Positions 3,107 through 36,691 of a stretch of 64,000 nucleotides of DNA are shown piece by piece. The notes under the pieces were generated by a model, which did no database searches, was not told the DNA's origin, and was given only the letters and a program-made list of their open reading frames with translations. Within the stretch, counting starts at the first letter, position 1. Each line of letters begins with the position of its first letter. This DNA is from a candidate division FCPU426 bacterium (lineage in GTDB: Bacteria > Oederibacteriota > Muellerivitia > Muellerivitales > Muellerivitaceae), in the NCBI GenBank assembly GCA_963719085.1, contig CAVRAL010000001.1, forward strand, positions 204,096-268,095. Direction: 5' to 3'. A program made the position numbers and the translations under genes.

Positions 3107-3114
3107 GGCGGCAA

Positions 3115-3140: not shown

Positions 3141-3181
3141 AAAACTACCGAAAACCCTTATTTTTCAAGGTTAAGGGCGCC

Positions 3182-9465: not shown

Positions 9466-9477
9466 GCCCCGAGGCCA

Positions 9478-9526
9478 GGGAGATCCAGAGAACCACGCTT
9501 ATTCCAACGCCTATCTCTGGATCTCC
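9478..9526. repeat. Perfect 13-bp hairpin immediately after the murE stop
   Basis: GGAGATCCAGAGA (9479-9491) pairs with TCTCTGGATCTCC (9514-9526) across a 22-nt loop. No U-tract follows. Confidence 0.8.
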
Positions 9527-9548
9527 GTGTTCTCGGACAAGCCGATTT

Positions 9549-9626
9549 ACCGCGAAGCCGCGAAGCCGCAAAGAAAAAATGATTTTATTCTCATTTGTTC
9601 TTGGCGTCTTGGCGTCTTGGCGGTGA
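9549..9626. repeat. CCAAG-word hairpin element (copy with a decayed left arm)
   Basis: Left arm ACCGCGAAGCCGCGAAGCCGCAAAG (9549-9573), A/T-rich loop, right arm CTTGGCGTCTTGGCGTCTTGGCGGTGA (9600-9626). The word period is 8 nt. The left arm differs from the perfect complement at 5 of 25 positions. Confidence 0.85.
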
Positions 9627-9634
9627 GGGGTTCC

Positions 9635-10978
9635 GTGCTTCCCTGGACTTTGCGGGAGACGGCGGCTTTGGTGAATGGCCGGATCGTGGAAGGGAAAAAC
9701 GATTTAGTGGTGACGGGGGTTTGCCACGACACCCGCGCCGTTCAAAAAGGATTCCTGTTCACGGCGATTCGGGGGGCTCGGCTCGATGGGCACCGGTTTT
9801 TAGCCGAGGCGAAACGAAAAGGCGCGGTGGCGGCGCTGGTCTCGCGCTTTGTCGCGGGAGTGAAACTGCCCCAAATTTTGGCGCCGGAGACCACGGCGGC
9901 CTTGGGCGAATTAGGCCGGACCCAGCGCCTGCAATGGGGGGGGCCGGTGGTGGCGGTGACGGGCAGCGTGGGGAAAACCACGGTGAAAGATTTGACGGCC
10001 CACTTGTTGGGCGGAAAGTTTAAGACGCTCAAGACCCAGGGCAACCTGAACAATCAGTTCGGCCTGCCCTTGAGTTTGCTGAAGCTGACGGCGGCCCACG
10101 AGGCGGCCGTGGTGGAGTTGGGGATCAACCATCCGGGCGAGATGGAATGGCTGTCGGAGATCGCCCGGCCGGATACGGCGGTGGTGACGGCGATTGGGGA
10201 AGCCCATCTGGGTTTCTTTAAGGGGAAGAAGCAGCTGGCCGAGGAAAAATTGAAGATCGCCTCGCATTTGAGGCAGGGGGGGAGTGTCGTGCTAAACGCC
10301 GAGGACGACTACTTGAAAAAGAATTTGGAGAACAAAAAAAGTTTCGGCTTGCGCCAGGGCGATGTCCGGGCCTGGGGCCTCAAACTTTTGGGGCTTAAGA
10401 CCCAATTCACCCTTTGGGCGGAGGGCCGCGCCTTCCGAACCAGCCTGGCCATGCTGGGCGAGCACAATGTTCAAAACGCCTTGGCGGCCACCACGGCGGC
10501 CATGACCCTGGGGGTTTCGGCCGAGGAATGCGCGAAACGCCTCAGCACGTTTAGGGTAGAGGCCCCCATGCGGATGGAATTGAAAAAGCGCGACGGAATT
10601 CTATTTATTAATGACGCTTATAACGCCTCGCCCACCTCCATGGTGGCGGCTTTGGCGGCCTTTGAGCGGGTTCCGGCCAAGGGGTATAAGTACGCGGTTT
10701 TAGGGGACATGTTGGAATTGGGCGATTATTCCCTCGGCGCCCACGCGCAGATTTTGCGCTTGGCCCTGATGGAGCCTTTGGATGGACTCATTTTGGTCGG
10801 CGACGGGATGGGCGAAGCCTTGGATCACACGGCGATCCGGAAAAATTTCAGGATCTGGCATTTTCCCTCGGCGGGCCTGACCGGTAAATTTTTGAGGCGC
10901 AAATTGGTGAAGGGTGACGCGGTGTTGCTCAAGGGTTCCCGGGGCATGGCCCTGGAAAAGGTGTTGGACGCGTTTTAA
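9635..10978 (+). CDS. murF: UDP-N-acetylmuramoyl-tripeptide--D-alanyl-D-alanine ligase MurF
   Basis: VTGSVGKTT P-loop, with LNNQFGLPLSLL and NDAYNASP motifs. The proposed start is GTG 9635, preceded by GAGGGG (9625-9630). ORF-track start 9527 would translate the hairpin repeat (SWRLGVLAV). Confidence 0.9.
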   Translation: MLPWTLRETAALVNGRIVEGKNDLVVTGVCHDTRAVQKGFLFTAIRGARLDGHRFLAEAKRKGAVAALVSRFVAGVKLPQILAPETTAALGELGRTQRLQWGGPVVAVTGSVGKTTVKDLTAHLLGGKFKTLKTQGNLNNQFGLPLSLLKLTAAHEAAVVELGINHPGEMEWLSEIARPDTAVVTAIGEAHLGFFKGKKQLAEEKLKIASHLRQGGSVVLNAEDDYLKKNLENKKSFGLRQGDVRAWGLKLLGLKTQFTLWAEGRAFRTSLAMLGEHNVQNALAATTAAMTLGVSAEECAKRLSTFRVEAPMRMELKKRDGILFINDAYNASPTSMVAALAAFERVPAKGYKYAVLGDMLELGDYSLGAHAQILRLALMEPLDGLILVGDGMGEALDHTAIRKNFRIWHFPSAGLTGKFLRRKLVKGDAVLLKGSRGMALEKVLDAF

Positions 10979-10997
10979 AAAAAGAGAGGTAATTTTT

Positions 10998-11084
10998 ACC
11001 ACCAAGGCACCAAGACGCCAAGGAGGCTTAAGGAAAAAATCCTCAGGTTTTCAAATCTTTGATTTCTTGGTGTCTTGGTGGTGA
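10998..11084. repeat. CCAAG-word hairpin element
   Basis: Left arm ACCACCAAGGCACCAAGACGCCAAGG (10998-11023). Right arm CTTGGTGTCTTGGTGGTGA (11066-11084). It lies in the murF-mraY spacer. Confidence 0.9.
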
Positions 11085-11127
11085 GAGAGATTGAGACTTA
11101 GCTTAAGAAACGATCGGAGATCGAAAA

Positions 11128-12216
11128 GTGCTTTACCACTTGTTATATCCGCTGGCGGATAAATTTATCGGGTTCAACGTTTTTCGCTATGTGACCTTCC
11201 GCAGCGTTTACGCCGCCATCACGGCTTTTGGCTTGTGCCTGCTTTTGGGCGGCGCGGTCATCGCCCGCATGCGGGCCGCCCAGTTGGGCGAAAAGATCCG
11301 CCACGACGGGCCGGCCAGTCATTCCGCGAAGGCGGGTACGCCCACCATGGGCGGGGTTCTTATTCTTTTGACGCTTCTCATCAGCGCGCTGCTTTGGGTT
11401 CGGTGGGACTCCAAGTTTTTGTGGTTGGGGGTTTTTTCACTGGTTTGGTTCGGCCTGGTCGGGTTCGTCGATGACTACTCAAAACTCGTCGGCAAGGGAA
11501 AAAGCCGGGGAATGTCCAGCGCCACCAAGCTTGTTTTGCAGACCGTGGGCGCCGCCATCGTGGTGGCCCTTTATATGTGGGCCCTGCCCGATGATTTCGC
11601 GCTTCGCACCTCCATCACCCTGCCTTTCATCAAGGTGCCGGTGGACCTGGGGATGTTTTACCCCTTTTTCGCCGTGCTCGTCATCGTGGGCGCTTCCAAC
11701 TCGGTCAACCTCACCGACGGGCTCGATGGATTGGCCATCGGCTGTTCCACCTTTACGGCCATGGCTTTTGTGGTCATCACCTACGTGTCGGGCAATATCA
11801 AGTTCAGCGAGTATCTCAAAATCATCAGCGTGCCCGGCACGGGTGAGCTGACGGTCATGTGCGCGGCGCTGGTCGGGGCGGGGCTGGGGTTTCTTTGGTT
11901 CAACGCGCATCCGGCCCAGATCTTCATGGGCGACACGGGTTCGTTGGCCCTGGGCGGTCTTTTGGGCACCATCGCGGTGATGGTCAAGCAGGAGCTTTTG
12001 CTGGTGATCGTGGGCGGCATTTTCGTGGTGGAGGCCCTGTCGGTCATTATCCAGGTCACGTCTTATAAATTCAGCGGCAAGCGCGTCTTCAAGATGGCGC
12101 CCCTGCACCACCATTTTGAGCTGTCGGGCGTCCCGGAATCCAAACTCATCGTCCGATTTTGGATCGTGGCCATTATTTTGACATTGCTGACACTGTCGAC
12201 GCTGAAACTGCGTTAA
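11128..12216 (+). CDS. mraY: Phospho-N-acetylmuramoyl-pentapeptide transferase MraY
   Basis: 362-aa polytopic ORF. NLTDGLDGLA, MGDTGSLALGG and APLHHHFE motifs. GTG start. Confidence 0.95.
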   Translation: MLYHLLYPLADKFIGFNVFRYVTFRSVYAAITAFGLCLLLGGAVIARMRAAQLGEKIRHDGPASHSAKAGTPTMGGVLILLTLLISALLWVRWDSKFLWLGVFSLVWFGLVGFVDDYSKLVGKGKSRGMSSATKLVLQTVGAAIVVALYMWALPDDFALRTSITLPFIKVPVDLGMFYPFFAVLVIVGASNSVNLTDGLDGLAIGCSTFTAMAFVVITYVSGNIKFSEYLKIISVPGTGELTVMCAALVGAGLGFLWFNAHPAQIFMGDTGSLALGGLLGTIAVMVKQELLLVIVGGIFVVEALSVIIQVTSYKFSGKRVFKMAPLHHHFELSGVPESKLIVRFWIVAIILTLLTLSTLKLR

Positions 12217-12231
12217 GAGGAAAAAATGATG

Positions 12232-12353
12232 GAAACCAACACAAAAAGCCAACGCCAAGACGCAAAGGAAAGCGAAAGATATGTTTGAAAAACATTCTCG
12301 TTTTGCCCTTCTTGGCGTCTTGGCGTCTTGGCGTTGGTCGTTTGTGTTGGTTC
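12232..12353. repeat. CCAAG-word hairpin element (variant flanks)
   Basis: Left arm GAAACCAACACAAAAAGCCAACGCCAAGACGCAAAGG. Right arm CCTTCTTGGCGTCTTGGCGTCTTGGCGTTGGTCGTTTGTGTTGGTTC. There is a central ATGTTT..AAACAT mini-palindrome. It lies in the mraY-murD spacer. Confidence 0.85.
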
Positions 12354-12375
12354 TGACTTTGGAAGGGGTCGCGAA

Positions 12376-13752
12376 GTGATCTATGTCCATAACAAACAAG
12401 TGGCGGTGATCGGCTTGGGCCGCTCGGGACTGGCTGCGGCGCGTCTTTTGTCCGTGCGGGGCGCCCAAGTGGTGGTCCTGGACGAGAAGACGCCGGAAAA
12501 GCTAGGTTCCTGGATCGACAAGGCCAAGGACCTGCCGATCCGTTTGTCGTTGGGGAAAATGGACTTGACGCTCCTTTTGTCCTCGGATTTGATCGTCACC
12601 TCGCCCGGGGTGCCTTTTGACCATCCGGCCTTGGAACAGGCCCGGGACAAGGGAATCCGGGTGATCGGGGAGCTGGAATTGGCTTACGGTTATTGCCCGG
12701 CGCAAGTCGCCGCCATCACGGGCACCAACGGCAAAACCACCACCACGGCCCTGACGGCCGCCATGATCGCGGCTTCCGGCAAAAAAGCCATCGCTTGCGG
12801 GAATATCGGCCGGGCTTTCGCCGAGGCGGTCTTTGAGCTTTCGGCTGAGGATTGGGCGGTCTTGGAAGTTTCCAGTTTTCAATTGGAGACCATTGAGACT
12901 TTCAGGCCCAACTTGGCGGCGATTTTAAACGTCACTCCGGATCATTTGGACCGGCATGGCAGCATGCAGGCTTATGTCGAGATGAAGTCCCGGATTTTCG
13001 AGAACCAAAAACCCGAGGACGCGGCGGTCTTAAATGTGGGCGACAAATACACCCCCATCTTCGCGGGGCTTTTAAAAAGCCGGCTGCACTTCTTCGGTTT
13101 CGCCGAGAAGGCCAAGGATTTGGGCCGTCCGGGCTGTTACGTGGTGGGAAATCAATTGGAACTTTTAGGGCGTCCCTTGTTGAAGTCCGCCGATTTAAAA
13201 ATTCCGGGGCCCCATAATTTAGAAAACGCCTGCGCGGCGGCGATGCTGGCCTCGCTGGCGGGTGTTTCGGATTCGGACATCGCCCGGGCTTTGGCGGAAT
13301 TTAACGGGGTGGAGCACCGGTTGGAAAAGGCCGGCGTGATCGAGGGCGTGAGTTTTATCAACGACTCCAAGGGAACCAACGTGGATTCGGTCTTGAAGGC
13401 GCTGGAAAGTTTCGAGCGCCCGATCGTTCTTATCCTGGGCGGCCGGGACAAGGCCGGGGACTTTAGGACCTTGGCTCCTTTGGTAAAGGAAAAAGTGACC
13501 CGGGTGGTGGCCTTCGGGGAATGCAAAGCCAAGGTGGTTCAACAGCTTTCATCCACGGCCACCGTGGTGGAAGCCGAAACCTTGGAAGAGGTGGTGAATG
13601 GGGCTTTCGCGGCCAGTGAAAAGGGGGGCACGGTGCTTTTTTCCCCGGGCTGCGCCAGCTTTGACATGTTTCAGAATTACGAGGATCGGGGCCGTCAGTT
13701 TAAGGATTTGGTTTTGAAGTTGGCTTTAGCCAAGTCCACGGCTAAGGCTTAA
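12376..13752 (+). CDS. murD: UDP-N-acetylmuramoylalanine--D-glutamate ligase MurD
   Basis: N-terminal Rossmann VAVIGLGRSGLAAARLL and ITGTNGKTTT P-loop. The proposed start is GTG 12376 behind GGAAGGGG (12361-12368). ORF-track start 12328 lies inside the hairpin arm. Confidence 0.9.
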   Translation: MIYVHNKQVAVIGLGRSGLAAARLLSVRGAQVVVLDEKTPEKLGSWIDKAKDLPIRLSLGKMDLTLLLSSDLIVTSPGVPFDHPALEQARDKGIRVIGELELAYGYCPAQVAAITGTNGKTTTTALTAAMIAASGKKAIACGNIGRAFAEAVFELSAEDWAVLEVSSFQLETIETFRPNLAAILNVTPDHLDRHGSMQAYVEMKSRIFENQKPEDAAVLNVGDKYTPIFAGLLKSRLHFFGFAEKAKDLGRPGCYVVGNQLELLGRPLLKSADLKIPGPHNLENACAAAMLASLAGVSDSDIARALAEFNGVEHRLEKAGVIEGVSFINDSKGTNVDSVLKALESFERPIVLILGGRDKAGDFRTLAPLVKEKVTRVVAFGECKAKVVQQLSSTATVVEAETLEEVVNGAFAASEKGGTVLFSPGCASFDMFQNYEDRGRQFKDLVLKLALAKSTAKA

Positions 13753-13765
13753 GAAAATAAGTTTT

Positions 13766-13859
13766 ACCGCCAAGGCGCCAAGGACGCCAAGGACGGAAAA
13801 ACAAAAAGATATTTTGAAGGGGTTCGACTTTCTTGGCGAACTTGGCGTCTTGGCGGTGA
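13766..13859. repeat. CCAAG-word hairpin element
   Basis: Left arm ACCGCCAAGGCGCCAAGGACGCCAAGGA (13766-13793). Right arm TCTTGGCGAACTTGGCGTCTTGGCGGTGA (13831-13859). Each arm has three 8-9-nt words. Confidence 0.9.
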
Positions 13860-13893
13860 AATAGTTTTGGCTGAATTTTAGGTTTTAAAGGGA

Positions 13894-13982
13894 GTCATTT
13901 TTACATTCGGATTCTAAGACTACGCCTTCTACGCCACTCAACACCTACTACACCTGGCTTGGAATCCGAATGAAAGAATGAC
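13894..13982. repeat. Second, unrelated long hairpin in the murD-ftsW spacer
   Basis: GTCATTTTTACATTCGGATTC (13894-13914) pairs with GAATCCGAATGAAAGAATGAC (13962-13982) as 6+11 bp around an internal mismatch block. The loop carries short tandem words (CTACGCC twice, CACCTAC/TACACCT). Confidence 0.75.
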
Positions 13983-14175
13983 AGCCAAAAAAAGAAGTTA
14001 AAAAGTCATTCTGTAACAACCCCTGAAGCCGGGGGATTCAGGGGTTTATGAAAAGATGAATCCTATTTATTAGGGAATCATCTTTGGGCGCCATTGGAAG
14101 CTGTCCCTTCAAATGGCCATGGGGGACGACCTCCTTGTTATTGGCGGTCCGAAGTCGGTTTTATAGAAGTTATTT

Positions 14176-15336
14176 TTGGAGGCAGTTTTGAATTTTAAGA
14201 CTCGACAATTGGAATCGCCGGATTTTCTGCTTTTCCTGATCACCCTGATTCTCACGACTTCGGGACTGATCATGGTCTATAGCGCGTCGGCCATTTTGGC
14301 CCACGATGAGTACGGCAATTCTTACTATTTCTTCGGCCGCCAACTCCTTTGGATTTTGGTGGGAAGCGCCGCGGCTTGGGTCGTCAGCCGGGTCGATTTG
14401 GAAACCTTCCGGAGCCTGGCCATACCGGCCCTTTTGGTTGGGTTTTTCCTCATGGCCCTGGTTTGCGTGCCGGGCATCGGCCGCACCGTGGGCGGAGCCC
14501 AGCGCTGGTTTCGCTTGGGCCCCCTTTCGTTCCAGCCTTCCGAAGTCATGAAAATCATCCTGATCTTTTACCTGGCGGATTCCTTGGACCGGCGCCGGCA
14601 TCTTTTGGTCAACTTTTCCGGGCTCATGCCCTACCTGGTTATTTTGGGGATCACCATGGTCTTTTTGGAAAAACAACATGACTTCGGGACGGCCGTACTC
14701 CTGGCTTTGGTCACCATCCTGATGCTCTTTTTGGCCGGCATGCCCTGGGGTTATTTCGTGATCCCGGTTTCCATCCTGATCCCGGTTTTTATCTTCCTGG
14801 TGGAATCGGCCAGCTACCGCATGCGCCGCATCACGGCCTTTTTGAATCCTTGGGACGACCCGCAAGGCGCCGGATTCCAGCTGATTCAAAGCTTGATCGC
14901 GGTGGGCTCGGGCGGGCCCTTCGGCGTGGGACTTTCCAACAGCTCCCAAAAGCTTTTTTACCTGCCGGCTCCGCACACGGATTTTATCTTCGCCATCATC
15001 TGCGAAGAGCTGGGATTGGTGGGGGCGGGGGCTTTGGTGGCCTTCTTCGCTTTTTTCATCCTGCGGGGATTCAAGGTGGCCGAAACCGTAGGGGCCCGCC
15101 AGGGCGGTTTTTTCGCGTTCCTTTTGGCTTCGGGCATTACGGCTTTGATCGGCTTCCAGGCCATCGTGAACTTGGGCGTGGTGACCGGGCTTTTGCCCAC
15201 CAAGGGAATTCCCTTGCCGCTGATTTCGTACGGCGGATCGTCCATGGTCTTCACCCTGGTCTCCATCGGCATTCTTTTCAACATTTCCCGGGGGGTGAAG
15301 CTGCATTTCCCCTTCAGCGGAAAAAGGACGGTTTGA
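14176..15336 (+). CDS. ftsW: Peptidoglycan glycosyltransferase FtsW (SEDS family)
   Basis: 386-aa polytopic ORF. SEDS motifs QPSEVMKI, HTDFIFAIICEELG and LPTKGIPLPLISYGGSS. The start is uncertain: TTG 14176, or TTG 14188 behind GGAGG (14178-14182). Confidence 0.9.
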   Translation: MEAVLNFKTRQLESPDFLLFLITLILTTSGLIMVYSASAILAHDEYGNSYYFFGRQLLWILVGSAAAWVVSRVDLETFRSLAIPALLVGFFLMALVCVPGIGRTVGGAQRWFRLGPLSFQPSEVMKIILIFYLADSLDRRRHLLVNFSGLMPYLVILGITMVFLEKQHDFGTAVLLALVTILMLFLAGMPWGYFVIPVSILIPVFIFLVESASYRMRRITAFLNPWDDPQGAGFQLIQSLIAVGSGGPFGVGLSNSSQKLFYLPAPHTDFIFAIICEELGLVGAGALVAFFAFFILRGFKVAETVGARQGGFFAFLLASGITALIGFQAIVNLGVVTGLLPTKGIPLPLISYGGSSMVFTLVSIGILFNISRGVKLHFPFSGKRTV

Positions 15337-15340
15337 GGAT

Positions 15341-16468: not shown

Positions 16469-17865
16469 GCCTGTCCCAGTTTTTAACCCAGCCCCTGGGG
16501 TCCGTGAAAAGGGTCCATTTTATCGGCATCGGCGGCGCCGGCATGAGCGGCATCGCGGCGGTGCTCTTGAGCCTGAAATACCAAGTAACGGGATCGGACT
16601 TGAAACCCAGTGAAGTGACGGACCGCTTGATCGCCATGGGCGCCAAGATCGCCTTTGGCCACAAGGCCGCCAACGCGGTGGGTTCGGACGTGGTGGTTTA
16701 TTCGGCGGCGGTTCCCTTGGACAATCCGGAGATCACCGAAGCCCAAAAGCGGCAAATCCCGGTGATCCAACGCACCGAAATGCTGGCCGAACTGATGCGG
16801 CTCAAATACGGAATCGCGGTCTCGGGCACCCACGGTAAAACCACGACCACTTCCATGATCGGGCTGGCTTTGACCGAGGGAAAACTGGACCCGACCTTGG
16901 TGATTGGGGGCCAAGTGGACGCTTTCAAGTCCAACGCCAAACTGGGAAAAAGCGATTATCTGGTGGCCGAGGCCTGCGAGGCTTTCGGCGAGTTTTTCCT
17001 GCTCTCGCCCATGATTTCCATCATCACCAATATCGACGACGATCACTTGGACTATTACGGTTCCATCGAGAAGGTGCGGGATTCTTTCGTGACCTTCGCC
17101 AACAAAGTTCCTTTTTATGGCTGCGTGATTTTGGGGATCGATGACAAGCAGATCCAGTCCATGGTCGGGCAAATTAAGCGCCGGGTAGTGACCTATGGGC
17201 TTCAAAAACCGGCCCAGGTGATGGCCCGCAAGATCAAATACGAAAAAGCCGGGTCGATCTTTGAGGTGGCCCGGGACGGAAAAAAGCTCGGCGTGGTCCA
17301 CTTGGGCGTGCCGGGCCGGTTCAACATTCAAAACGCTTTGGCCGCCATTTCGGTGGCGCTGGAACTCAAAGTTCCCTTCAAGGCGATCGCGGCGGGGTTG
17401 GCCCGCTTCCATGGGGCCCAGCGCCGCTTTGAGATCAAGGGAACCTTCAAGGGCGCCACGGTGGTCGATGATTACGCCCACCATCCCACAGCGGTCTTGG
17501 AAACCTTGAAAGCGGCCAAGCATTTCGCCGGAAGCAAAAAGTTGGTGGTGGTGTTTCAACCCCATCTTTTTTCCCGGACCCAATTGCTCCGGGACAAATT
17601 CGGCAAGGCCTTTGGCGACGCGGATGAGGTGATCATCACCGCCGTTTATCCTTCCCGGGAAAAGCCGATCCCGGGCGTGACGGGCAAAACTTTGGTGGAG
17701 GCGATCCGGGAAAACGGCCACAAGTCGGTGGCGTCTTTTGAGGATAAGACGGCCCTTTTGGAATATTTAAAAGGCCATCTGACCGGCAAACATGTGCTTT
17801 TGACCATGGGCGCGGGGGATATCTGGAAACTGGGTTCGGACCTGGTCCAGAAACATAAAGGTTAG
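16465..17865 (+). CDS. murC: UDP-N-acetylmuramate--L-alanine ligase MurC
   Basis: FIGIGGAGMSGIA and VSGTHGKTTTTSM motifs. The ATG overlaps the murG stop (ATGA). Confidence 0.95.
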   Translation: MSLSQFLTQPLGSVKRVHFIGIGGAGMSGIAAVLLSLKYQVTGSDLKPSEVTDRLIAMGAKIAFGHKAANAVGSDVVVYSAAVPLDNPEITEAQKRQIPVIQRTEMLAELMRLKYGIAVSGTHGKTTTTSMIGLALTEGKLDPTLVIGGQVDAFKSNAKLGKSDYLVAEACEAFGEFFLLSPMISIITNIDDDHLDYYGSIEKVRDSFVTFANKVPFYGCVILGIDDKQIQSMVGQIKRRVVTYGLQKPAQVMARKIKYEKAGSIFEVARDGKKLGVVHLGVPGRFNIQNALAAISVALELKVPFKAIAAGLARFHGAQRRFEIKGTFKGATVVDDYAHHPTAVLETLKAAKHFAGSKKLVVVFQPHLFSRTQLLRDKFGKAFGDADEVIITAVYPSREKPIPGVTGKTLVEAIRENGHKSVASFEDKTALLEYLKGHLTGKHVLLTMGAGDIWKLGSDLVQKHKG

Positions 17866-17874
17866 GAAAAAATG

Positions 17875-17958
17875 ACCACCAAGGCACCAAGACACCAAGG
17901 AAGGCGGAAAGAAAATTCGATTTGTTTTTTTCTTGGTGTCTTGGCGTCTTGGTGGTGA
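17875..17958. repeat. CCAAG-word hairpin element
   Basis: Left arm ACCACCAAGGCACCAAGACACCAAGGA (17875-17901). Right arm TCTTGGTGTCTTGGCGTCTTGGTGGTGA (17931-17958). It lies in the murC-murB spacer. Confidence 0.9.
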
Positions 17959-17972
17959 GGAACTTTTTCGTC

Positions 17973-18920
17973 GTGGATTTTGGGGAACTGAAGAAACGGC
18001 TTAAGGGCCGGGTGGAATTGGGCGCCTCAATGGCGCTAGCGACCAGCTACCACATCGGGGGCGCCGCGGGGGCCTTGGTGGAGCCGCAAGACGTGGAAGA
18101 TTTAAAGACTTTGATGGGCTGGCTTGGGGAAACCCAGACGCCCTACCTCATTTTGGGCGGGGGAAGCAACCTGCTTTTCGCCGATGAGGGCTTTCAAGGC
18201 GTGGTGATCCGCCTGGGACGCGGGTTCCAAGGCGTGCAGGTGGAAGGGGATCGGGTTCGGGTGAAAGCCGCCACCAAATTGGTGACGGTTCTCAATCGGG
18301 CCCGGGAAGAAAACCTGGGGGGCGTCGAGTTTTTCGCCGGCATCCCGGGAACCATCGGCGGGGCGGTGTCCGGGAACGCCGGGGCTAAAAAGGCCTGGAT
18401 CGGGCCCACGGTGGAGGAGCTTTTGATCGTGACGCCTGAGGGCGAGGCGAAGGTTTTAAAGAAGGCGGACTACGTTTACGGATACCGCGCCTCCTCGTTG
18501 AAGATGAGCGGAAATGTTTTGGTGGAGGCGGTCTTGAGGCTCAAAAAAGAGCCCCAGGCGGAGATTGAAAAAAAAGTGAGGGACTATTTCAAGGTGCGCC
18601 GGGGGAAACAGCCCCGGGTGGAGCCCAACGCGGGAAGCGTTTTTAAGAACCCCGAGGGAAACTTCGCGGGGCGTTTAACCGAGTCGGTGGGACTCAAAGG
18701 CTTCAAGGTGGGCGGGGCTGAGGTGAGCCAAATTCACGCCAACTTTATCGTGAACGACGGAAAGGCCAAGGCCCGCGATGTGGTGGCGGTGATGCGGGAG
18801 ATTCAGAAACGGGTATGGGCTGAGTACCAGATCAAACTGGAGCCTGAAATCCTTCCCTTGGGGGATTGGGATTGGGCCGAGATTCAGGATGTGTGGTGGA
18901 ATTTGGAAAAGAAGTTTTGA
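17973..18920 (+). CDS. murB: UDP-N-acetylenolpyruvoylglucosamine reductase MurB
   Basis: FAD-binding GGGSNLLF motif plus the GSVFKNP and ANFIVN motifs. The proposed start is GTG 17973. ORF-track start 17922 translates the hairpin arm (SWCLGVLVV). Confidence 0.9.
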   Translation: MDFGELKKRLKGRVELGASMALATSYHIGGAAGALVEPQDVEDLKTLMGWLGETQTPYLILGGGSNLLFADEGFQGVVIRLGRGFQGVQVEGDRVRVKAATKLVTVLNRAREENLGGVEFFAGIPGTIGGAVSGNAGAKKAWIGPTVEELLIVTPEGEAKVLKKADYVYGYRASSLKMSGNVLVEAVLRLKKEPQAEIEKKVRDYFKVRRGKQPRVEPNAGSVFKNPEGNFAGRLTESVGLKGFKVGGAEVSQIHANFIVNDGKAKARDVVAVMREIQKRVWAEYQIKLEPEILPLGDWDWAEIQDVWWNLEKKF

Positions 18921-18983
18921 ATTTTAAGTTCTAAGTTTTGAGTTCTTAAACTTAAAACTAAAAACTGAGAACTCAAAACTAGG
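18921..18983. repeat. AT-rich word-repeat hairpin (AAGTTYT / AAAACTN words)
   Basis: Perfect 13-bp stem AGTTTTGAGTTCT (18934-18946) with AGAACTCAAAACT (18968-18980) and a 21-nt loop. The arms and loop are built of about 7-nt words (AAGTTCT AAGTTTT GAGTTCT on one side, AAAACTA AAAACTG AGAACTC on the other). It fills the murB-ddl spacer. Confidence 0.85.
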
Positions 18984-18994
18984 GCAGGAAACGA

Positions 18995-19975
18995 ATGAGT
19001 ACAAGGAAAGCAATGAAGCCGAAAACCGGAGCGGGAAAATTGAAAGTGGGTGTCCTGATGGGCGGTTGGAGCTCGGAACGCGCGGTGTCTTTGGTCTCGG
19101 GCCAAAAGGCGGCGGAGGCTTTGAAAAAGGCGGGCTTTTCCGTGGCGATTTTGGATTTGACCTCCACCGACCGGAACGAAAAGAAACTCGCGGCGAGGTT
19201 GAAAAAGGCCCGCTTGGACGCGGCTTTGATCGCCTTGCATGGCGGTTACGGGGAGAACGGCGGCATCCAGTCCTTGCTCGAACGTTTGAGGATTCCCTAT
19301 ACGGGATCGGGTCCCTTGGCTTGCGGATTGGCCATGCAAAAGGCCTGCGCCAAGCTGGTGCTGGAAGCCAACGCGGTGCCGACGGCGCCTTGGCAGGCGT
19401 TGGAACGAAAAACCTCGAATGACAATCGGGGCAAAGAAGTGATCTTGAAATTGCCGCTGGTGGTCAAGCCCGCGGACGGGGGATCGGCGATCGGGGTGAC
19501 GATCGCGCGCAAAAAAGAACAATTGAGCCCGGCCTTGAAAACGGCCTTTAAAACCAGCCAATGGGCGGTGGTGGAGAAATTCATCGAGGGAGTGGAAGTG
19601 ACGGCGGGAGTTTTGGAAGACAAGGCGCTTCCTTTAATCGAGATAGTGCCCGCGAACGATTTTTACGATTACGACGCCAAATACACGCCGGGCCGCTCCA
19701 AACACGTGATTCCGGCCCGGTTGTCCAAGGCGGTGACGAAAAAAGTCCAAGCCGCGGCGTTAAAGGCGGGCCGGGTATTGGGATGCCGTGATTTTTACCG
19801 GGTGGACTTGATCGTGCCGAAAAAAGGCGGCCCGCAAGTTTTGGAAGTGAACACGGTTCCGGGCATGACGGGAACCAGTCTTTTTCCGGAGGCCGCGGCG
19901 AAGGCGGGCACGCCTTTCCCGAAGCTTTTGAAGCGGTTGGTGCTTTTGGCGCTGAGCCGGAAAGGCCGTGATTAA
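18995..19975 (+). CDS. ddl: D-alanine--D-alanine ligase
   Basis: VGVLMGGWSSERAVSLVSG N-terminus, ATP-grasp core and C-terminal EVNTVPGMT motif. Confidence 0.93.
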   Translation: MSTRKAMKPKTGAGKLKVGVLMGGWSSERAVSLVSGQKAAEALKKAGFSVAILDLTSTDRNEKKLAARLKKARLDAALIALHGGYGENGGIQSLLERLRIPYTGSGPLACGLAMQKACAKLVLEANAVPTAPWQALERKTSNDNRGKEVILKLPLVVKPADGGSAIGVTIARKKEQLSPALKTAFKTSQWAVVEKFIEGVEVTAGVLEDKALPLIEIVPANDFYDYDAKYTPGRSKHVIPARLSKAVTKKVQAAALKAGRVLGCRDFYRVDLIVPKKGGPQVLEVNTVPGMTGTSLFPEAAAKAGTPFPKLLKRLVLLALSRKGRD

Positions 19976-21039
19976 TGTATTACCGGGGGTCCCGAGTTTC
20001 TTTAAGCGAAAGCCGGGATCATTTTCATCCCAGCGTGGGGCCGAAGACCTGGCGGGACCGGGCGGCTTCCCGCGCGCAGGAAAAGCCGAAGGAAAAGATG
20101 TTTCGGCTGTCGTTGAAGCTGGTCCGCAAGCCAAAGCGCCAAGCCCCCCTGTTTTCGGGGGCTCGGGCAACGGAAGTACAAGAACAAGTCGTTCATGGAT
20201 TCTACCGGCCCAGCCGCTTGACGAGGGCTTCCAACGGCGGCGCCGCCGCGGTGGATGGCCGGGATGGTCTGCGGCCTGGTTTCGCGGTTCCGCCTTTTGT
20301 GGGGAAGCTGGGGATGCCGATTTTAAAAGCGGGATTGGTGTTGGGGTTGGTGGGGGCCTTGGTGTGGTCCAAGGTGAAGACCTCGGATTTGCTGCAGCAG
20401 ATGTCGGGCTTGACGCTCTCCAAAATCAGCGTGGAGGGCGACCATTATTTGACGGAGGATGAAGTGATCGCCGCGGCCAAGGCGCCCCTGGGAGTCAATA
20501 TGTTCAAGCTCGATCTGGGCGATATCTCCGCCAAGGTGGGAGCCTTGAGCTGGGTGAAAAGGGTGTTCGTCGAGAGGCGCCTGCCCAAGTCCCTGCTCAT
20601 TTCCGTGGACGAGCGCAAACCCCTGGCCCTGTTGGACCATGGGGATCTTTACGCCGCGGATGCGGACGGCCGGATTTTATCCCCTTCGCAAGCCCTCTCC
20701 GGCGTGGACCTGCCGGTGGTGTCGGGCCTTGATTTTACCCCGGACGCCGTGGGGACCACGCTGGAGGCGGCCAGCTTGAAGCCGGCGCTGGATTTTTTGG
20801 AATTCCTGAAACACCAGGACGGGTCCTTGGCCCAGGACGTTTCGGAAGTGAACCTGGCGGAGCCCGGGTGCTTGAAGGTGACTTTTATCGACGGCGTGGT
20901 GGCCCGGTTTAACCCCTTGGTGACCGAGGACGAGCTGAGGCATATGGCGCTGGTGTTGGGCGATTTGAATTTAAAAGGGAAAAAGGCGGCCAGCCTGGAC
21001 TTTCGTTACAAAGACGAAGTGCTGGTGAGGACGCGATGA
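19975..21039 (+). CDS. ftsQ: Cell division protein FtsQ (POTRA domain)
   Basis: TM segment ILKAGLVLGLVGALVW followed by POTRA (ISVEGDHYLTEDEVIAAAKAPLGVNMFKLDL) and the FtsQ beta domain. The start is uncertain. ATG 19975 overlaps the ddl stop by 1 nt. ATG 20098, behind GAAGGAAAAG, is an alternative. Confidence 0.8.
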   Translation: MYYRGSRVSLSESRDHFHPSVGPKTWRDRAASRAQEKPKEKMFRLSLKLVRKPKRQAPLFSGARATEVQEQVVHGFYRPSRLTRASNGGAAAVDGRDGLRPGFAVPPFVGKLGMPILKAGLVLGLVGALVWSKVKTSDLLQQMSGLTLSKISVEGDHYLTEDEVIAAAKAPLGVNMFKLDLGDISAKVGALSWVKRVFVERRLPKSLLISVDERKPLALLDHGDLYAADADGRILSPSQALSGVDLPVVSGLDFTPDAVGTTLEAASLKPALDFLEFLKHQDGSLAQDVSEVNLAEPGCLKVTFIDGVVARFNPLVTEDELRHMALVLGDLNLKGKKAASLDFRYKDEVLVRTR

Positions 21040-21075
21040 ACATGAAAAGAGGAACCATGGATAAAAACAATATTA

Positions 21076-21172
21076 ACCACCAAGACACCAAGACACCAAG
21101 TTTAAAAGGTAACGATGGAACTCAAAAGCAAAAGTTTTTGACTTCCTTGGCGCCTTGGCGTCTTGGTGGTGA
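21076..21172. repeat. CCAAG-word hairpin element
   Basis: Left arm ACCACCAAGACACCAAGACACCAAG (21076-21100). Right arm CTTGGCGCCTTGGCGTCTTGGTGGTGA (21146-21172). It lies in the ftsQ-ftsA spacer. Confidence 0.9.
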
Positions 21173-21204
21173 AAAACATGTTTTAAAACAAGGGGGTGAA
21201 TGAA

Positions 21205-22470
21205 ATGGCTAAGGAAATAAAACAAGACGTGGTGGTGGGTTTGGACCTGGGGACGACCAAGGTTTGCACCATCATCGGGGAGCTGGATGACGAGGGCCAG
21301 GTCCACATCATCGGCGTGGGCACCACCCAGTCGACGGGTTTGAAAAAAGGCTCGGTGGTCAACATCGAGCAAACCATCAACTCGATTAAAAAATCCATCC
21401 AGGACGCGGAGCGCATGGCCGGGGTGGAAGTGACCTCGGTTTACGCCGGGGTGGCCGGAGGGCACATCAAGGGCCTCAACAGCCGGGGCGTCATCGCAGT
21501 GTCCCGCCGGGACAAGGAGATCACCGAGGAAGACAGGGAGCGCGTCATTGAGGCCGCGCAGGCCATCGCCATCCCGCTGGACCGGGAAATCATCCACGTG
21601 ATTCCCCAGGAATATATCGTGGACGATCAGGACGGCATCAAGAATCCCGTGGGCATGTCGGGGGTTCGATTGGAGGCCGAGGTCCATGTGGTGACCGGCG
21701 CGGTGACCAGCGTGCAAAACATCGTGCGCAGCGTGGAGCGGGCGGGGGTTTCCGTCAACGACATCGTGCTGCAGCCCCTGGCTTCCGCGGAGGCCATCCT
21801 TTCGGCCGACGAGAAAGAGCTGGGCGTGGTGCTCATTGATATCGGCGGAGGGACCACGGATATCGCGGTTTTCATCAACGGATCACTTTGGCACACGGGC
21901 ATCATCACCTTAGGGGGGGCCTTGGTCACCAGCGACGTGGCCGTGGGTTTGAGGACGCCCAACACCGAGGCGGAAAGCATCAAGACGCATTTTGGGAGCG
22001 CCTATACCGCCATGGTGAAAGAAGAGGAAGAAATCACCGTGCCGGGCGTGGGCGGGCGCCCGGACCGGCGCATGCCGCGGCGGGTATTGTCTGAAATTAT
22101 TGAGGCCCGCATGGAGGAAATTTTTGAGCTGGTTTCCGCCGAGCTTAAGAAACACGGGTTTGAGGACCGCATCCCCGCGGGGGCGGTTATCACGGGCGGG
22201 TCTTCCTTAATGGAAGGCACGGCCGAGTTGGCGGAAAAAATCCTCCAGCTTCCGGTGCGCATTGGGTCGCCCAAACGGGTGGGCGGGTTAACGGATGTGG
22301 TTTCCAACCCCATGTATTCCACCGCGGTGGGATTGGTTTTGATGGGACTTCGGTCCCACTCGGGGCCTTCGTCGGCGGCCGGGAAGAAAAGCGCGGGCGC
22401 CAAGCAAGGCGGCGGAATGCTGCAGGACATCCTGGGCCGGATGAAGGGTTGGTTCGGAGATTCGATTTAA
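21205..22470 (+). CDS. ftsA: Cell division protein FtsA
   Basis: Actin-fold motifs VVGLDLGTTKVC and VLIDIGGGTTDIAVF. ATG 21205 lies behind AGGGGG (21191-21196). The ORF-track GTG 21196 is 3 codons upstream. Confidence 0.93.
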   Translation: MAKEIKQDVVVGLDLGTTKVCTIIGELDDEGQVHIIGVGTTQSTGLKKGSVVNIEQTINSIKKSIQDAERMAGVEVTSVYAGVAGGHIKGLNSRGVIAVSRRDKEITEEDRERVIEAAQAIAIPLDREIIHVIPQEYIVDDQDGIKNPVGMSGVRLEAEVHVVTGAVTSVQNIVRSVERAGVSVNDIVLQPLASAEAILSADEKELGVVLIDIGGGTTDIAVFINGSLWHTGIITLGGALVTSDVAVGLRTPNTEAESIKTHFGSAYTAMVKEEEEITVPGVGGRPDRRMPRRVLSEIIEARMEEIFELVSAELKKHGFEDRIPAGAVITGGSSLMEGTAELAEKILQLPVRIGSPKRVGGLTDVVSNPMYSTAVGLVLMGLRSHSGPSSAAGKKSAGAKQGGGMLQDILGRMKGWFGDSI

Positions 22471-22480
22471 CGGCGGATTT

Positions 22481-22563
22481 ACCGCCAAGACGCCAAGTGC
22501 GCCAAGAAAGGCAAAGATTAAGAGATTTTGAAGTCCTTGGCGAACTTGGCGTCTTGGCGGTGA
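22481..22563. repeat. CCAAG-word hairpin element
   Basis: Left arm ACCGCCAAGACGCCAAGTGCGCCAAGA (22481-22507). Right arm CTTGGCGAACTTGGCGTCTTGGCGGTGA (22536-22563), with one mismatch. It lies in the ftsA-ftsZ spacer. Confidence 0.9.
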
Positions 22564-22747
22564 AAAGGTTTTGAATTTGTAGTGGGTTGGACTTTGGAAA
22601 GGTGGTGATTGTTTGGCACTGGAACTAAAGGGTTGAGGGGCGCGGGGGCGCGAGTCTTCGCCGCCCAAAGGGCGTGAGGCTTCACGTCCCTGCGCTTAAA
22701 AAATGGGGTTTAAAGTTTCACCAAAAAAATCAAGATGAGGGGGATTT

Positions 22748-23926: not shown

Positions 23927-24016
23927 TCACCACAGAGTTACACAGAGTGAACAGAGTAAGGATCAAACCCTATTTGGGATTTGGTTTTACTCCGAGTAAC
24001 TCGGTGTAACTCCGTG
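23927..24016. repeat. Word-repeat hairpin, 10-nt word family (CACAGAGTKA)
   Basis: The left arm is three tandem 10-mers, CACAGAGTTA CACAGAGTGA ACAGAGTAAG (23931-23960). The right arm is three inverted 10-mers, TACTCCGAG TAACTCGGTG TAACTCCGTG (23988-24016). The loop is about 27 nt. It starts 19 nt after the ftsZ stop. Confidence 0.85.
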
Positions 24017-24041
24017 TTTCAAAGATTTTGACTGTCTTTTT

Positions 24042-24175
24042 GGCCCGGCGCTCGTCGGGCCGATGAGACGGAAGCACGGCGCCCGGACCCTTTGGTGCTC
24101 CGGGAACACCCCCTACGCTTTTCGACACCTGGGGTGCCTCCCCGTGCTTCCGTCCCATCGCTGGGGATTTTTTTA
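24042..24175 (+). promoter_or_regulatory. Structured leader or complex terminator candidate: a 19-bp long-range helix enclosing two smaller helices, then a T7 run
   Basis: P1 is CGATGAGACGGAAGCACGG (24061-24079) with CCGTGCTTCCGTCCCATCG (24142-24160), 18/19 paired. Inner helices are CCCGGA (24082-24087)/TCCGGG (24099-24104) and CACCCC (24107-24112)/GGGGTG (24131-24136). A 5' hairpin is GGCCCG/CGGGCC (24042-24061). TTTTTTT lies at 24168-24174, directly before the RBS and TTG of the deacetylase gene. Confidence 0.45.
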
Positions 24176-36619: not shown

Positions 36620-36643
36620 TCCAGGCTTTTTGAAGCTTTTCCA

Positions 36644-36679: not shown

Positions 36680-36691
36680 CCCGCCCTTCGA

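Follow-up and report, generated by a model that had tools for sequence, protein, structure and literature searches.

Long hairpins between cell-division genes are most likely gene-less copies of a mobile cassette encoding a predicted nuclease

The long hairpins found between the cell-division genes of a candidate division FCPU426 bacterium are real, but they are most likely gene-less copies of a widespread, previously undescribed selfish DNA cassette that in its full form carries a small predicted nuclease gene, and not a control system built for this operon. We analysed a 64,000-nucleotide stretch of its genome (contig CAVRAL010000001.1, positions 204,096 to 268,095), hereafter the window, which includes an essential 16-gene dcw cluster whose genes were confirmed by Pfam. 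The hairpins show the same arms as elements that we identified in more than a dozen phyla and in phage contigs, and in six loci from four phyla these arms enclose a single gene of the GxxExxY family.

Tandem-word hairpins in the window

A preliminary description reported nine copies of a hairpin whose arms are tandem CCAAG words, seven of them within the dcw cluster, and we confirmed this observation for all nine (Table 1). The motif CCAAG-N4-CCAAG occurs 8 times in the window against 0.26 expected, and none of 100 shuffles reaches 8. A strict detector, requiring at least 3 words on one arm and at least 2 inverted words on the other, finds 7 hairpins in the window, but none in 20 shuffles of it nor in 806 kb of dcw loci from other bacteria. 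Each copy folds at -39 to -63 kcal/mol (z = -5.1 to -10.8), with none of 200 shuffles as stable, although the spacers between words are often not complementary between the two arms. The overlaps described at the junctions without a hairpin also hold: ATGA at ftsL/ftsI and murG/murC, GTGA at ftsI/murE, and TAATG at ddl/ftsQ. Once the two copies outside the cluster are reverse-complemented, all nine share one polarity, TTTACC...GGTGAAA. The window contains in addition four or five tandem-word hairpins of other word families (CAGAG, CAGATG, AT-rich heptamers).

Table 1. Tandem-word hairpins and canonical terminators in the window. L121, L123 and L204-L210 are dcw loci, and L259-L261 guaA loci, of relatives.
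Positions	Strand	Feature and location	Folding	Sequence features	State in relatives or elsewhere
9469-9536	+	Degenerate CAGAG-like hairpin directly after murE			Conserved in L123
9549-9626	+	CCAAG hairpin, murE-murF	MFE -39.1, z -5.1	Degenerate left arm (CGAAG/CAAAG words); 3' end GGCGGTGAGGGG overlaps the Shine-Dalgarno sequence of murF (GTG start near 9634)	
10998-11084	+	CCAAG hairpin, murF-mraY	z -7.2	ACCAAG word variant	Absent in L123; a different hairpin in L121
12232-12353	+	Composite CCAAG/CAAAG hairpin, mraY-murD	z -7.7	Extra outer arms AACCAACACAAA...TTTGTGTTGGTT; keeps an ATG and a leader-like frame, MMETNTKSQRQDAKESERYV, then a stop	Homologous over its whole length, loop included, to guaA-downstream copies in L259 and L260 (non-orthologous sites)
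13766-13859	+	CCAAG hairpin, murD-ftsW	z -10.8		Absent in L121 and L123, which keep only the conserved ftsW-leader hairpin
17875-17958	+	CCAAG hairpin, murC-murB	z -9.7	Begins ATGACCACCAAGG; 3' end GGTGGTGAGGAA supplies the murB Shine-Dalgarno sequence	CAGATG-word hairpin in L121 and L204; 13-nt spacer in L123
18913-18980	+	AT-rich heptamer-word hairpin, murB-ddl	z -4.5	AGTTYTR words	Kept in L121 and L204/L205; variant in L123; absent in L208, where the genes overlap
21076-21172	+	CCAAG hairpin, ftsQ-ftsA	z -6.8	Begins ATTAACCACCAAGACACCAAGACACCAAG, which reads (I/M)NHQDTKTPS	Orthologous copy with conserved flanks in L121 and L209/L210; AT-word hairpins in L207, L204-206 and L208; empty 36-nt spacer in L123
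22481-22563	+	CCAAG hairpin, ftsA-ftsZ	z -10.3	Arm-specific spacers, TGCG on one arm and TTCG on the other	CCAAG in L205; CGAAG in L208 and L123; other hairpins in L121 and L209; same spacer pair at an unrelated site in an Akkermansiaceae MAG
23929-24026	+	CAGAG hairpin after ftsZ, upstream of the canonical terminator	z -5.7	TTCACCACAGAGTTACACAGAGTGAACAGAG...	
about 24061-24175		Canonical terminator at the true end of the dcw cluster			
36640-36680		Canonical terminator			
41418-41532	-	CCAAG hairpin between a PMT_2/DUF8201 gene and a Wzy_C/TPR gene		Inverted polarity relative to the dcw copies	Absent in L260 and L261 (90% GuaA identity), which have a 43-nt spacer
49840-49955	+	CAGATG/CGGATG hairpin, guaB-guaA	z -4.8		Orthologous but decaying in L259; replaced by a CCAAG hairpin in L260 and L261
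51561-51670	-	CCAAG hairpin just after guaA		Inverted polarity	CAAAG/CCAAG composite in L259 and L260; CAGAG hairpin in L261
62360-62390	+	Solo arm of the CGGATG family in a convergent spacer, read from the sequence alone		TTGATAAACGCGGATGAACGCCGAT	

The hairpins sit 7-36 nt after stop codons, and, as the preliminary description stated, they are not canonical terminators: no U-tract abuts any stem, and a scan of the window found 31 terminator-like sites against 27 in shuffles, none of them at a hairpin. Runs of four or five T lie 8-12 nt beyond the GC stem in six copies, 11 cases of the wider family lie between convergent genes, and the guaA copy lies where an operon end is expected, upstream of a conserved promoter-like sequence. 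Nevertheless, it is very unlikely that these are unconventional terminators or attenuators, either U-tract-independent or bidirectional, since seven copies are inside an essential cluster, the organism has canonical terminators elsewhere, and full cassettes (see below) sit between operon genes.

Turnover at orthologous junctions

The interpretation given in the preliminary description is only partly supported. Its reading of a REP/BIME-like or MITE-like element with a preference for operon junctions holds, as these are dispersed, extragenic, hairpin-forming repeats that show presence/absence polymorphism between relatives, a test that it had itself set. Within the window, CCAAG hairpins are enriched at dcw junctions (7 of 17 against 2 of 30, Fisher p = 0.007), as are the hairpins of all word families together (9 of 17 against 4 of 30, p = 0.006). 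However, the statement that they fill nearly every non-overlapping junction is partly circular, because the spacer shrinks to 13-43 nt where relatives lack the hairpin.

By contrast, we found no evidence for its main reading, i.e. that the hairpins divide the dcw mRNA into segments of different stability, are processed, or attenuate transcription, and so set protein stoichiometry. Close relatives with the same gene order lack them at several junctions or carry a different word family there (Table 1), and identical elements occur at unrelated loci, in unrelated phyla and in phage contigs. Mismatches between arms show no bias towards G.U on the transcribed strand (23 sense, 29 antisense and 36 transversions over 35 elements), so that we see no selection on the RNA. 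Moreover, two genuine RNA structures in the same operon, the ftsZ-leader and the ftsW-leader, are conserved across those same relatives. We therefore consider host-selected intercistronic hairpins unlikely, although the very stable stems, the use of the 3' end of two copies as a Shine-Dalgarno sequence, the dcw enrichment, and the persistence of some hairpin of one family or another after ftsA and after guaA in every relative examined leave room for a host benefit.

A widespread family whose arms are the ends of a gene cassette

The same arms, ACC(R)CCAAG...CTTGG(Y)GGT, have a very wide distribution. Of 120 loci found with a two-word pattern, 105 carry a third in-register word plus the ACC terminus, where about 8% is expected by chance. 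These loci come from Planctomycetota, Chloroflexota, Verrucomicrobiota, Acidobacteriota, Cyanobacteria, Myxococcota, Proteobacteria, Armatimonadota and others. In IMG/VR, 48 stretches match the CCAAG pattern, many of them clear arrays or complete hairpins, and 52 match the CAGAG pattern.

We found that CCAAG arm pairs 400-470 nt apart enclose one GxxExxY gene in Sorangium, in Terriglobia (where it is frameshifted) and in Rhodospirillales, while a Planctomycetaceae locus shows the 3' end of the gene followed by the 3' arm, at a contig end. The family assignment rests on matches to TIGR04256 (E = 2e-41 to 2e-42) and PF13366 (E = 6e-42). All four GxxExxY genes in the 842 kb of CCAAG-hit loci are inside or against the arms, and there are none in 806 kb of control loci. 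Two more cassettes, in Blastocatellia and Planctomycetota, start 5 nt after the upstream stop inside co-directional gene runs, with arm-to-arm duplex energies of -59 and -90 kcal/mol. In all six, both arms sit within 1-30 nt of the ends of the ORF.

Read in gene sense, the 5' arm is the start codon plus the N-terminal leader, ATG AAC CGC CAA GAC GCC AAG GAC GCC AAG, which translates as MNRQDAKDAK, and the 3' arm is its inverted copy just after the stop codon. An NRQDAK-type leader is present in 108 of the 120 closest homologues, 97 of them at residue 1. Among the 149 best cluster representatives, 30 have leaders that translate four word families: NRQDAK.AK, HRRGAEDAE/NRRDAEGAE, NHEGHEG and NRKAAKAAK. 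The leader is disordered in a confident structural model (pLDDT 89.9 overall, below 50 for residues 1-13). The protein, of roughly 125 residues, has a predicted minimal PD-(D/E)XK nuclease fold, but its nearest folds (lambda exonuclease, Cas4, RecE) match only weakly (E = 2e-3 to 1e-2, TM 0.46-0.51), and its nuclease activity is putative.

These data also bear on the proposal that the arms are double-stranded DNA binding arrays, either for a nucleoid or global regulator or for a repeat-reading protein. Conserved 5-nt words at 8-9 nt spacing with variable spacers do look like iterated contacts, and IHF/HU was proposed for similar paired sites in Geobacter metallireducens (PMC2700814). However, the word differs between families while the architecture and the ACC(R)C terminus stay the same, the sites lie at 3' ends and inside operons and are depleted between divergent genes (5 of 39), and the arms are translated as protein leaders in the full cassettes. 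In the absence of any known binding evidence, the repeat-reading version put forward in the preliminary description is not supported, and binding arrays in general appear very improbable.

Origin of the gene-less hairpins

We favour with moderate confidence the view that the dcw hairpins are gene-less, MITE-like shells of a palindromic cassette whose 5' arm is (ATG)AACC(G/A)CCAAG-N3-(G/A)CCAAG-N3/4-(G/A)CCAAG. In this view, loss of the gene leaves arm, short A-rich/T-rich loop and arm, and the other word families (CAGAG, CGAAG, CAAAG, CAGATG) are the equivalent ends of other GxxExxY subfamilies. Cassettes and shells land in spacers a few nucleotides after stop codons, including junctions inside operons, and in the loops of hairpins already there, and they turn over quickly. 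Consistently, orthologous junctions gain, lose or swap family, different word families are nested at hairpin apexes, and related copies occupy unrelated sites, both in relatives and in the Akkermansiaceae MAG (Table 1).

Our analysis establishes the family membership of the dcw hairpins, the arms as ends of the gene cassette, the turnover at orthologous junctions, the existence of paralogous copies at non-orthologous sites, and the absence of a U-tract adjacent to the stems. What we infer is that the shells derive from full cassettes by internal deletion, in the way MITEs do, and that the putative nuclease supplies mobility in trans. We further infer that the 25-35 bp stem, when transcribed within the dcw mRNA, does not terminate transcription but is cut by RNase III and blocks 3' exonucleases, as happens with 23S rRNA intervening sequences, so that any effect on dcw expression would be a side effect and not the reason the elements exist. 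Finally, an essential operon may be a safe harbour, because imprecise deletions there are lethal.

Several results sit less easily with this scenario. No GxxExxY gene lies in the window or in 139 kb from its relatives, so that a trans-acting partner in this genome remains hypothetical, and no target-site duplication or clean insertion boundary could be defined. Only six gene-bearing cassettes were seen, and gene-less arrays outnumber them more than 20 to 1. Distant viral GxxExxY homologues (35-40% identity) have no flanking inverted repeats, indicating that the link does not hold across the whole family, and solo arrays in sense orientation just upstream of start codons in some phages and cyanobacteria are not explained by a deleted-cassette model. 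The direction of descent is likewise unproven, as the gene could have lodged secondarily in pre-existing hairpins. The hairpins might then be the primary, self-propagating element (REP/REPIN-like, moved by an unidentified enzyme), and GxxExxY genes separate selfish genes that preferentially lodge in hairpin loops and borrow the ATG of the arm. The nesting of unrelated hairpins at loop apexes shows that loops are favoured landing sites, and about 80% of the best 149 cluster representatives show no word-type leader by our motif screen. We nonetheless find this alternative doubtful, since the leader stays in frame with the domain in 108 of 120 close homologues and across four word families, which argues for long co-evolution of arm and gene, both arms adjoin the ORF in all six cassettes, and no other candidate enzyme was seen near the arrays.

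Comparison with known elements

The closest analogue is the 23S rRNA intervening sequence, for example in Coxiella burnetii and Leptospira (with the S23p ORF) and in its short ORF-less form in Salmonella. This is a selfish insert bounded by terminal inverted repeats that form a stem of about 28 bp, whose long forms carry one small ORF of about 120 residues and whose short forms are bare hairpins, with a sporadic, horizontally transferred distribution, and it is tolerated in an essential transcript because RNase III cuts the stem out (PMC4990558). Here, however, the host site is an intercistronic mRNA spacer and not an rRNA helix loop, the ORF is a GxxExxY PD-(D/E)XK protein and not S23p, the arms are tandem 8-9 nt words of which the 5' arm is translated, and RNase III cleavage is only inferred.

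The paired tandem-repeat "global regulator binding sites" of classes 1-3 in G. metallireducens (Aklujkar et al. 2009; PMC2700814) are pairs on opposite strands at variable distance, each of 3-5 tandem 7-9 nt repeats, present in dozens of copies including one between the operon genes proB and proA. Their class 2 word, TCTCCGTS(Y), is the complement of the CGGAG/CAGAG words seen here. They were only annotated in a genome paper, as putative sites guessed to bind IHF/HU, and no link was made to other phyla, to phages or to a gene cassette.

REP/BIME elements and REPIN-RAYT systems (PMC3116915) are also abundant extragenic hairpin-forming repeats at 3' ends of genes and inside operons, with a hairpin unit made of two inverted copies and non-autonomous copies that depend on a single-copy enzyme gene. 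REP hairpins stabilise upstream mRNA. The elements described here have no GTAG head, their arms are tandem words and not imperfect palindromes, no Y1 transposase (RAYT) was seen, and the candidate partner is a PD-(D/E)XK protein whose own coding start is the arm.

As in MITEs, the internal-deletion derivatives of insertion sequences, terminal inverted repeats are shared with a gene-bearing parent, gene-less copies far outnumber the parents, some copies share internal sequence, and there is presence/absence polymorphism. However, we found no target-site duplication, loops are mostly unrelated between copies, the parent encodes no known transposase, and the palindrome often extends into the flanking sequence.

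Finally, the STRR heptamer repeats of cyanobacteria and the TAACTGA repeats of Beggiatoaceae (MacGregor 2015; PMC4679880) are direct arrays, usually without an inverted partner, for which no associated gene has been proposed. They nevertheless also consist of tandem 7-nt words in intergenic DNA, often just upstream of start codons, with no known function and a patchy cross-phylum distribution that suggests horizontal transfer, and heptamer arrays sit in the loops of several CCAAG hairpins.

Anatomy of the hairpins

The nine elements of the preliminary description are real, and all were recovered where it had placed them. The pattern CCAAG-N4-CCAAG occurs 8 times in the window against 0.26 expected, and each copy folds at -39 to -63 kcal/mol (z = -5.1 to -10.8), with none of 200 shuffles being as stable. 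The surrounding genes are rsmH-ftsL-ftsI-murE-murF-mraY-murD-ftsW-murG-murC-murB-ddl-ftsQ-ftsA-ftsZ, and the junctions without hairpins overlap, as had been claimed. Each arm consists of ACC, then R, then three words (R)CCAAG spaced 8-9 nt apart, the left arm containing almost no T and the right arm almost no A. The 2-4 nt spacers between words vary and are often not complementary between the two arms. Once two copies are reverse-complemented, all nine align with one polarity, TTTACC...GGTGAAA.

The window also holds tandem-word hairpins built from other words (see the table of features), which brings the total to 13-14 word hairpins in 64 kb, all of them intergenic and 7-36 nt after stop codons. 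Word hairpins occupy 9 of 17 dcw junctions against 4 of 30 elsewhere in the window (p = 0.006), although part of this enrichment is circular, because the spacers exist only where the hairpins are. Mechanical ORF calls extend murF, murD and murB into the hairpin arms through GTG/TTG codons, which is an annotation pitfall.

Features of the window, and one feature of a guaA locus from a relative (L261)
Position	Feature	Remarks
3113-3141	Three direct repeats, AAGTGGG-N3-AAGTGGT-N3-AAGTGGG, with a 10-nt period	Just upstream of mraZ; looks like a MraZ operator; unrelated to the CCAAG words, which have an 8-9 nt period
9469-9536	Degenerate CAGAG-like hairpin	After murE
9527, 12328, 17922	Mechanical ORF calls of murF, murD and murB	Likely true starts are GTG near 9634, 12375 and 17973
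13889-13990	ftsW leader, long hairpin (TCATTTTTACATTCGGATTCTAAG ... CTTGGAATCCGAATGAAAGAATGA)	Upstream of ftsW; conserved in L121 and L123 with compensatory changes
18913-18980	AT-rich heptamer hairpin	Between murB and ddl
22637-22697	ftsZ leader, GC-rich hairpin	Conserved in L121, L123, L205, L208 and L209, with one compensatory C-G to U-A pair; candidate cis-regulatory RNA for ftsZ
23929-24026	CAGAG hairpin	After ftsZ
24061-24175	Canonical intrinsic terminator (GC stem plus T7-T8)	True end of the dcw cluster
36640-36680	Canonical intrinsic terminator (GC stem plus T7-T8)	After the HU gene
49840-49955	CAGATG hairpin	Between guaB and guaA
57720-57830	CCCTCTCC/GGAGAGGG-type palindrome	In a convergent spacer
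L261, 11549-11670	Repeat of the guaA 3' end (GAATGGGAATAA)	About 100 nt after guaA; looks like the trace of a recombinational replacement next to a hairpin swap

Turnover at orthologous junctions

An exact look-up of FtsZ returned no record, and GuaA is at least 70% identical only to sequences from MAGs. We retrieved dcw loci of relatives at 69-89% FtsQ identity (L121, L123 and L204-L210) and guaA loci at 89-95% GuaA identity (L259-L261). Comparison of orthologous spacers, which had been proposed beforehand as a check, shows rapid turnover, the same junction being filled, empty or occupied by a different word family in different relatives.

Occupancy of orthologous junctions in the window and in relatives
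Junction	Window	Relatives
mraY/murD	CCAAG	CCAAG (L123); CAGAG (L121)
murC/murB	CCAAG	CAGATG (L121, L204); 13-nt spacer (L123)
ftsQ/ftsA	CCAAG	CCAAG with conserved flanks (L121, L209/210); AT-word hairpins (L207, L204-206, L208); empty (L123)
ftsA/ftsZ	CCAAG	CCAAG, CGAAG or unrelated hairpins
PMT/Wzy (41418 copy)	CCAAG	Absent, 43-nt spacer (L260, L261)
guaB/guaA	CAGATG	CAGATG, decaying (L259); CCAAG (L260, L261)
guaA downstream	CCAAG	CAAAG/CCAAG composite (L259, L260); CAGAG (L261)

The mraY/murD copy is homologous over its whole length, loop included, to the guaA-downstream copies of L259 and L260, and these are paralogues at different sites. By contrast, two real RNA structures in the same operon, the ftsZ and ftsW leaders, are conserved in the same relatives with compensatory changes, unlike the CCAAG hairpin next to the ftsW leader. 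However, some hairpin persists after ftsA and after guaA in all relatives.

We looked for selection on the RNA strand as a bias of G.U over A.C among arm mismatches, and found none. Over 35 hairpins in co-directional contexts there are 23 G.U mismatches on the sense strand, 29 on the antisense strand and 36 transversions, and the window alone gives 19, 16 and 45. The palindrome therefore looks like a DNA-level feature that decays symmetrically.

A family spread over many phyla

A scan of one genome per species with a 17-nt, two-word pattern returned at least 120 loci, and 105 of these 120 carry a third in-register word, where about 8% is expected by chance. They come from Planctomycetota, Chloroflexota, Verrucomicrobiota, Acidobacteriota, Cyanobacteria, Myxococcota, Alpha-, Beta- and Gammaproteobacteria, Armatimonadota and others. 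IMG/VR contigs carry them too, 48 stretches matching the CCAAG pattern and 52 the CAGAG pattern, whereas a BLAST search of one copy against PLSDB plasmids and INPHARED phages gave no match, a test limited by the low-complexity filter and the short query. A metagenome scan with Ddl found only distant relatives (60% identity or less), which we used as controls, and 80 dcw loci from other bacteria (806 kb) have no such hairpins. Across phyla, the hairpins lie in 23 co-directional, 11 convergent and 5 divergent contexts.

Other word families share the same terminus, ACC(R)C...G(Y)GGT, and are often nested exactly at the apex of one another. An Akkermansiaceae MAG has the same asymmetric arm pair as the ftsA/ftsZ copy at an unrelated site. 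In three Sorangium loci (L009, L020, L027) the CCAAG hairpins carry an extra conserved flank on one side, CTAGAGCGACAAACGGGTTGAAACTGCCTGAAAAG, which begins at the stop codon of different upstream genes and suggests a larger lineage-specific composite element. In seven further loci (L005, L014, L032, L044, L105, L106, L118) the loops or flanks of CCAAG hairpins hold long direct arrays of unrelated heptamers or octamers (for example AGTGGTT, TTGGCTC, GACTCGT), like cyanobacterial STRR repeats.

The arms as ends of GxxExxY gene cassettes

Where CCAAG arms lie 400-470 nt apart, they enclose one gene of about 125 residues, as seen in L056 (Sorangium), L064 (Terriglobia) and L075 (Rhodospirillales), while L079 shows the 3' end of the gene with only the 3' arm, because the contig ends there. 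The gene encodes a GxxExxY protein (TIGR04256, E = 2e-41 to 2e-42), that is PF13366 PDDEXK_3. All four such genes in the 842 kb of CCAAG-hit loci are inside or against the arms, and there are none in the controls. Read in gene sense, the 5' arm is the start of the ORF, ATG AAC CGC CAA GAC GCC AAG GAC GCC AAG translating as MNRQDAKDAK, and the 3' arm follows the stop codon. NCBI annotates the Sorangium ORF with this leader (protein P0189 in our set). Two further cassettes, in Blastocatellia (L342-345) and Planctomycetota (L346), start 5 nt after the upstream stop within co-directional gene runs, PNPOx/GxxExxY/CofH-like and BatA/GxxExxY/ThuA-like, and their arms pair at -59 and -90 kcal/mol. Candidate autonomous elements with a transposase between distant arms (L226, L233, L035 and L106) turned out to be unrelated neighbouring copies, and a generic search for long-loop word hairpins gave mostly false positives in GC-rich DNA.

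The link extends beyond these loci. Among the 120 closest homologues, 108 carry the NRQDAK-type leader, 97 of them at residue 1. A profile search of 1.84 billion representatives finds 33,635 clusters, and 30 of the best 149 have leaders that translate tandem words of four families: NRQDAK.AK for CCAAG, HRRGAEDAE and NRRDAEGAE for CAGAG, NHEGHEG for CGAAG, and NRKAAKAAK for CAAAG. Many GxxExxY representatives (P0309-P0311, P0317, P0318 and others) are instead tandem two-domain proteins of 260-295 residues without a word-type leader, and form a distinct architecture within the family. The flanks of 76 viral GxxExxY homologues, which are distant, have no inverted repeats. In other genomes the commonest 3 nt before ACC is TGA, as in ATGAACC (54 of 226). 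Three dcw copies still read like leaders in the dcw direction: ATTAACCACCAAGAC... reads (I/M)NHQDTKTPS, ATGACCACCAAGG reads MTTK..., and a third contains ...SQRQDAKESER.

The protein models confidently (pLDDT 89.9) with a disordered leader. The nearest solved folds to this predicted structure are lambda exonuclease, Cas4 and RecE, but only weakly, and comparison of GxxExxY with PADLOC and with PDB sequences gave nothing informative. PDDEXK_3, which has a nuclease fold, is listed as of unknown function with 'multiple transfers' (PMC3424549). Literature searches for the word sequences and for GxxExxY returned nothing relevant: none of the word strings searched is printed in any relevant paper of the library searched, and GxxExxY has essentially no literature.

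Probable passengers in an essential operon

Our data demonstrate that the hairpins belong to a cross-phylum family, that their arms are the ends of GxxExxY cassettes, that they turn over quickly and have paralogous copies, and that they are not canonical terminators. We only infer that gene-less shells arise from cassettes by loss of the gene, that the nuclease mobilises them, that in RNA the stem is an RNase III substrate and a block to 3' exonucleases, so that the element is tolerated between cistrons, and that essential operons act as safe harbours. Some observations sit less easily with this model. No GxxExxY gene was found in the 64-kb window or in 139 kb from relatives, no target-site duplication was found, distant viral homologues lack arms, and gene-less copies vastly outnumber cassettes. 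Moreover, solo word arrays in gene-sense orientation lie 10-60 nt upstream of start codons in phage contigs (L253, L354, L368, L384, L386, L394), sometimes before several genes of one phage, and in cyanobacteria (L015, L076, L077, L087); the deleted-cassette model does not explain them, and they recall the TAACTGA repeats upstream of start codons. The preliminary reading of a REP/BIME-like system that could set segmental mRNA stability, processing or attenuation, or alternatively of a MITE-like element, is partly supported. For this operon, the hairpins are most likely passengers and not a control system built for dcw.

For annotation, gene callers run the starts of murF, murD and murB into the hairpin arms, and GxxExxY 'leaders' are repeat DNA. 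More broadly, three orphan observations, i.e. tandem-word inverted repeats in many phyla, paired 'regulator sites' in Geobacter, and the very large GxxExxY/PDDEXK_3 family, are tied to one testable model of a small nuclease cassette whose ends are made of tandem words, plus MITE-like shells that colonise operon junctions. If the nuclease does act on its own arms, this would be a new mobility mechanism, and would also show how selfish DNA can live inside essential operons without breaking them.

A more far-reaching possibility, which we regard as doubtful on present evidence, is that the tandem-word hairpins found in more than a dozen bacterial phyla and in phage contigs are the termini of an unrecognised class of mobile cassette. 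Such a cassette would be driven by the GxxExxY PD-(D/E)XK nuclease, a family of more than 30,000 sequence clusters with no known function, each word family being matched to the leader of its own nuclease subfamily. The cassettes would insert at intercistronic junctions and hairpin apexes, and would be made harmless by RNase III excision of the stem. They would then be the mRNA counterpart of rRNA intervening sequences, and would also explain cyanobacterial STRR-type repeats and the Geobacter 'regulator sites'.

Comparison with known systems

Against Rfam (E up to 1) the hairpins draw only weak, sub-threshold hits to microRNA-precursor hairpin models, and nothing in the window reaches a family's gathering score. 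They do not fit integron attC sites (RYYYAAC ... GTTRRRY), since the commonest right end, GGTTCAA, does not fit GTTRRRY, and the window ends are TTTACC and GGTGAAA. We also considered by eye and rejected tRNA T-arm similarity of GGTTCGAATC, sigma-54 promoter spacing, an IHF consensus, MraZ boxes, which lie elsewhere with a 10-nt period, and CsrA GGA sites.

Intrinsic terminators have a GC-rich stem immediately followed by a U-tract. Here nothing U-rich adjoins the stems, the sequence after the stem being GGTGAAA with T4-5 runs only 8-12 nt further on, and the terminator scan flags none of the hairpins, although the organism does use U-tract terminators.

With REP/BIME and REPIN-RAYT systems the hairpins share an extragenic location, mostly at 3' ends or inside operons, and a high copy number, judged from the window alone. 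They lack the 20-40 nt imperfect palindrome with a conserved 5' GTAG-type head, as the arms are tandem words with an ACC(R)C terminus, with no GTAG and no palindrome within an arm. Among the called genes of the syntenic loci, limited to the window and about 140 kb from relatives, no transposase appears, and the gene found between arms elsewhere is GxxExxY and not a RAYT, the IS200-like Y1 transposase flanked by the repeats in those systems.

As in MITEs, the terminal inverted repeats are those of gene-bearing elements, since the same CCAAG arms bound the GxxExxY genes. The parent of a MITE encodes a transposase; GxxExxY/PDDEXK_3 has a nuclease fold of unknown function. However, no convincing target-site duplication was found: filled and empty sites (ftsQ/ftsA against L123; the 41418 copy against L260) give no clean direct repeat, and the flanks are often inverted, not direct, repeats.

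MacGregor (2015) described cross-phylum TAACTGA repeats of unknown function. The G. metallireducens genome paper annotated pairs of tandem 7-9 nt repeats on opposite strands as putative regulator sites (classes 1-3). Compared with the published description and the class 3 alignment, our elements have the same anatomy of two intergenic, multicopy arrays on opposite strands at variable distance, each of 3-5 tandem 7-9 nt repeats, and one of the G. metallireducens words is the complement of the CGGAG/CAGAG words seen here.

The best architectural analogue is the 23S rRNA intervening sequence, which has a 28-bp terminal stem, an optional small ORF, and excision by RNase III. All copies seen here lie in mRNA spacers and not in an rRNA helix loop, with no rRNA gene in the window or in the loci examined, but they have stems of 25-35 bp, and the long forms carry a gene of about 125 residues.
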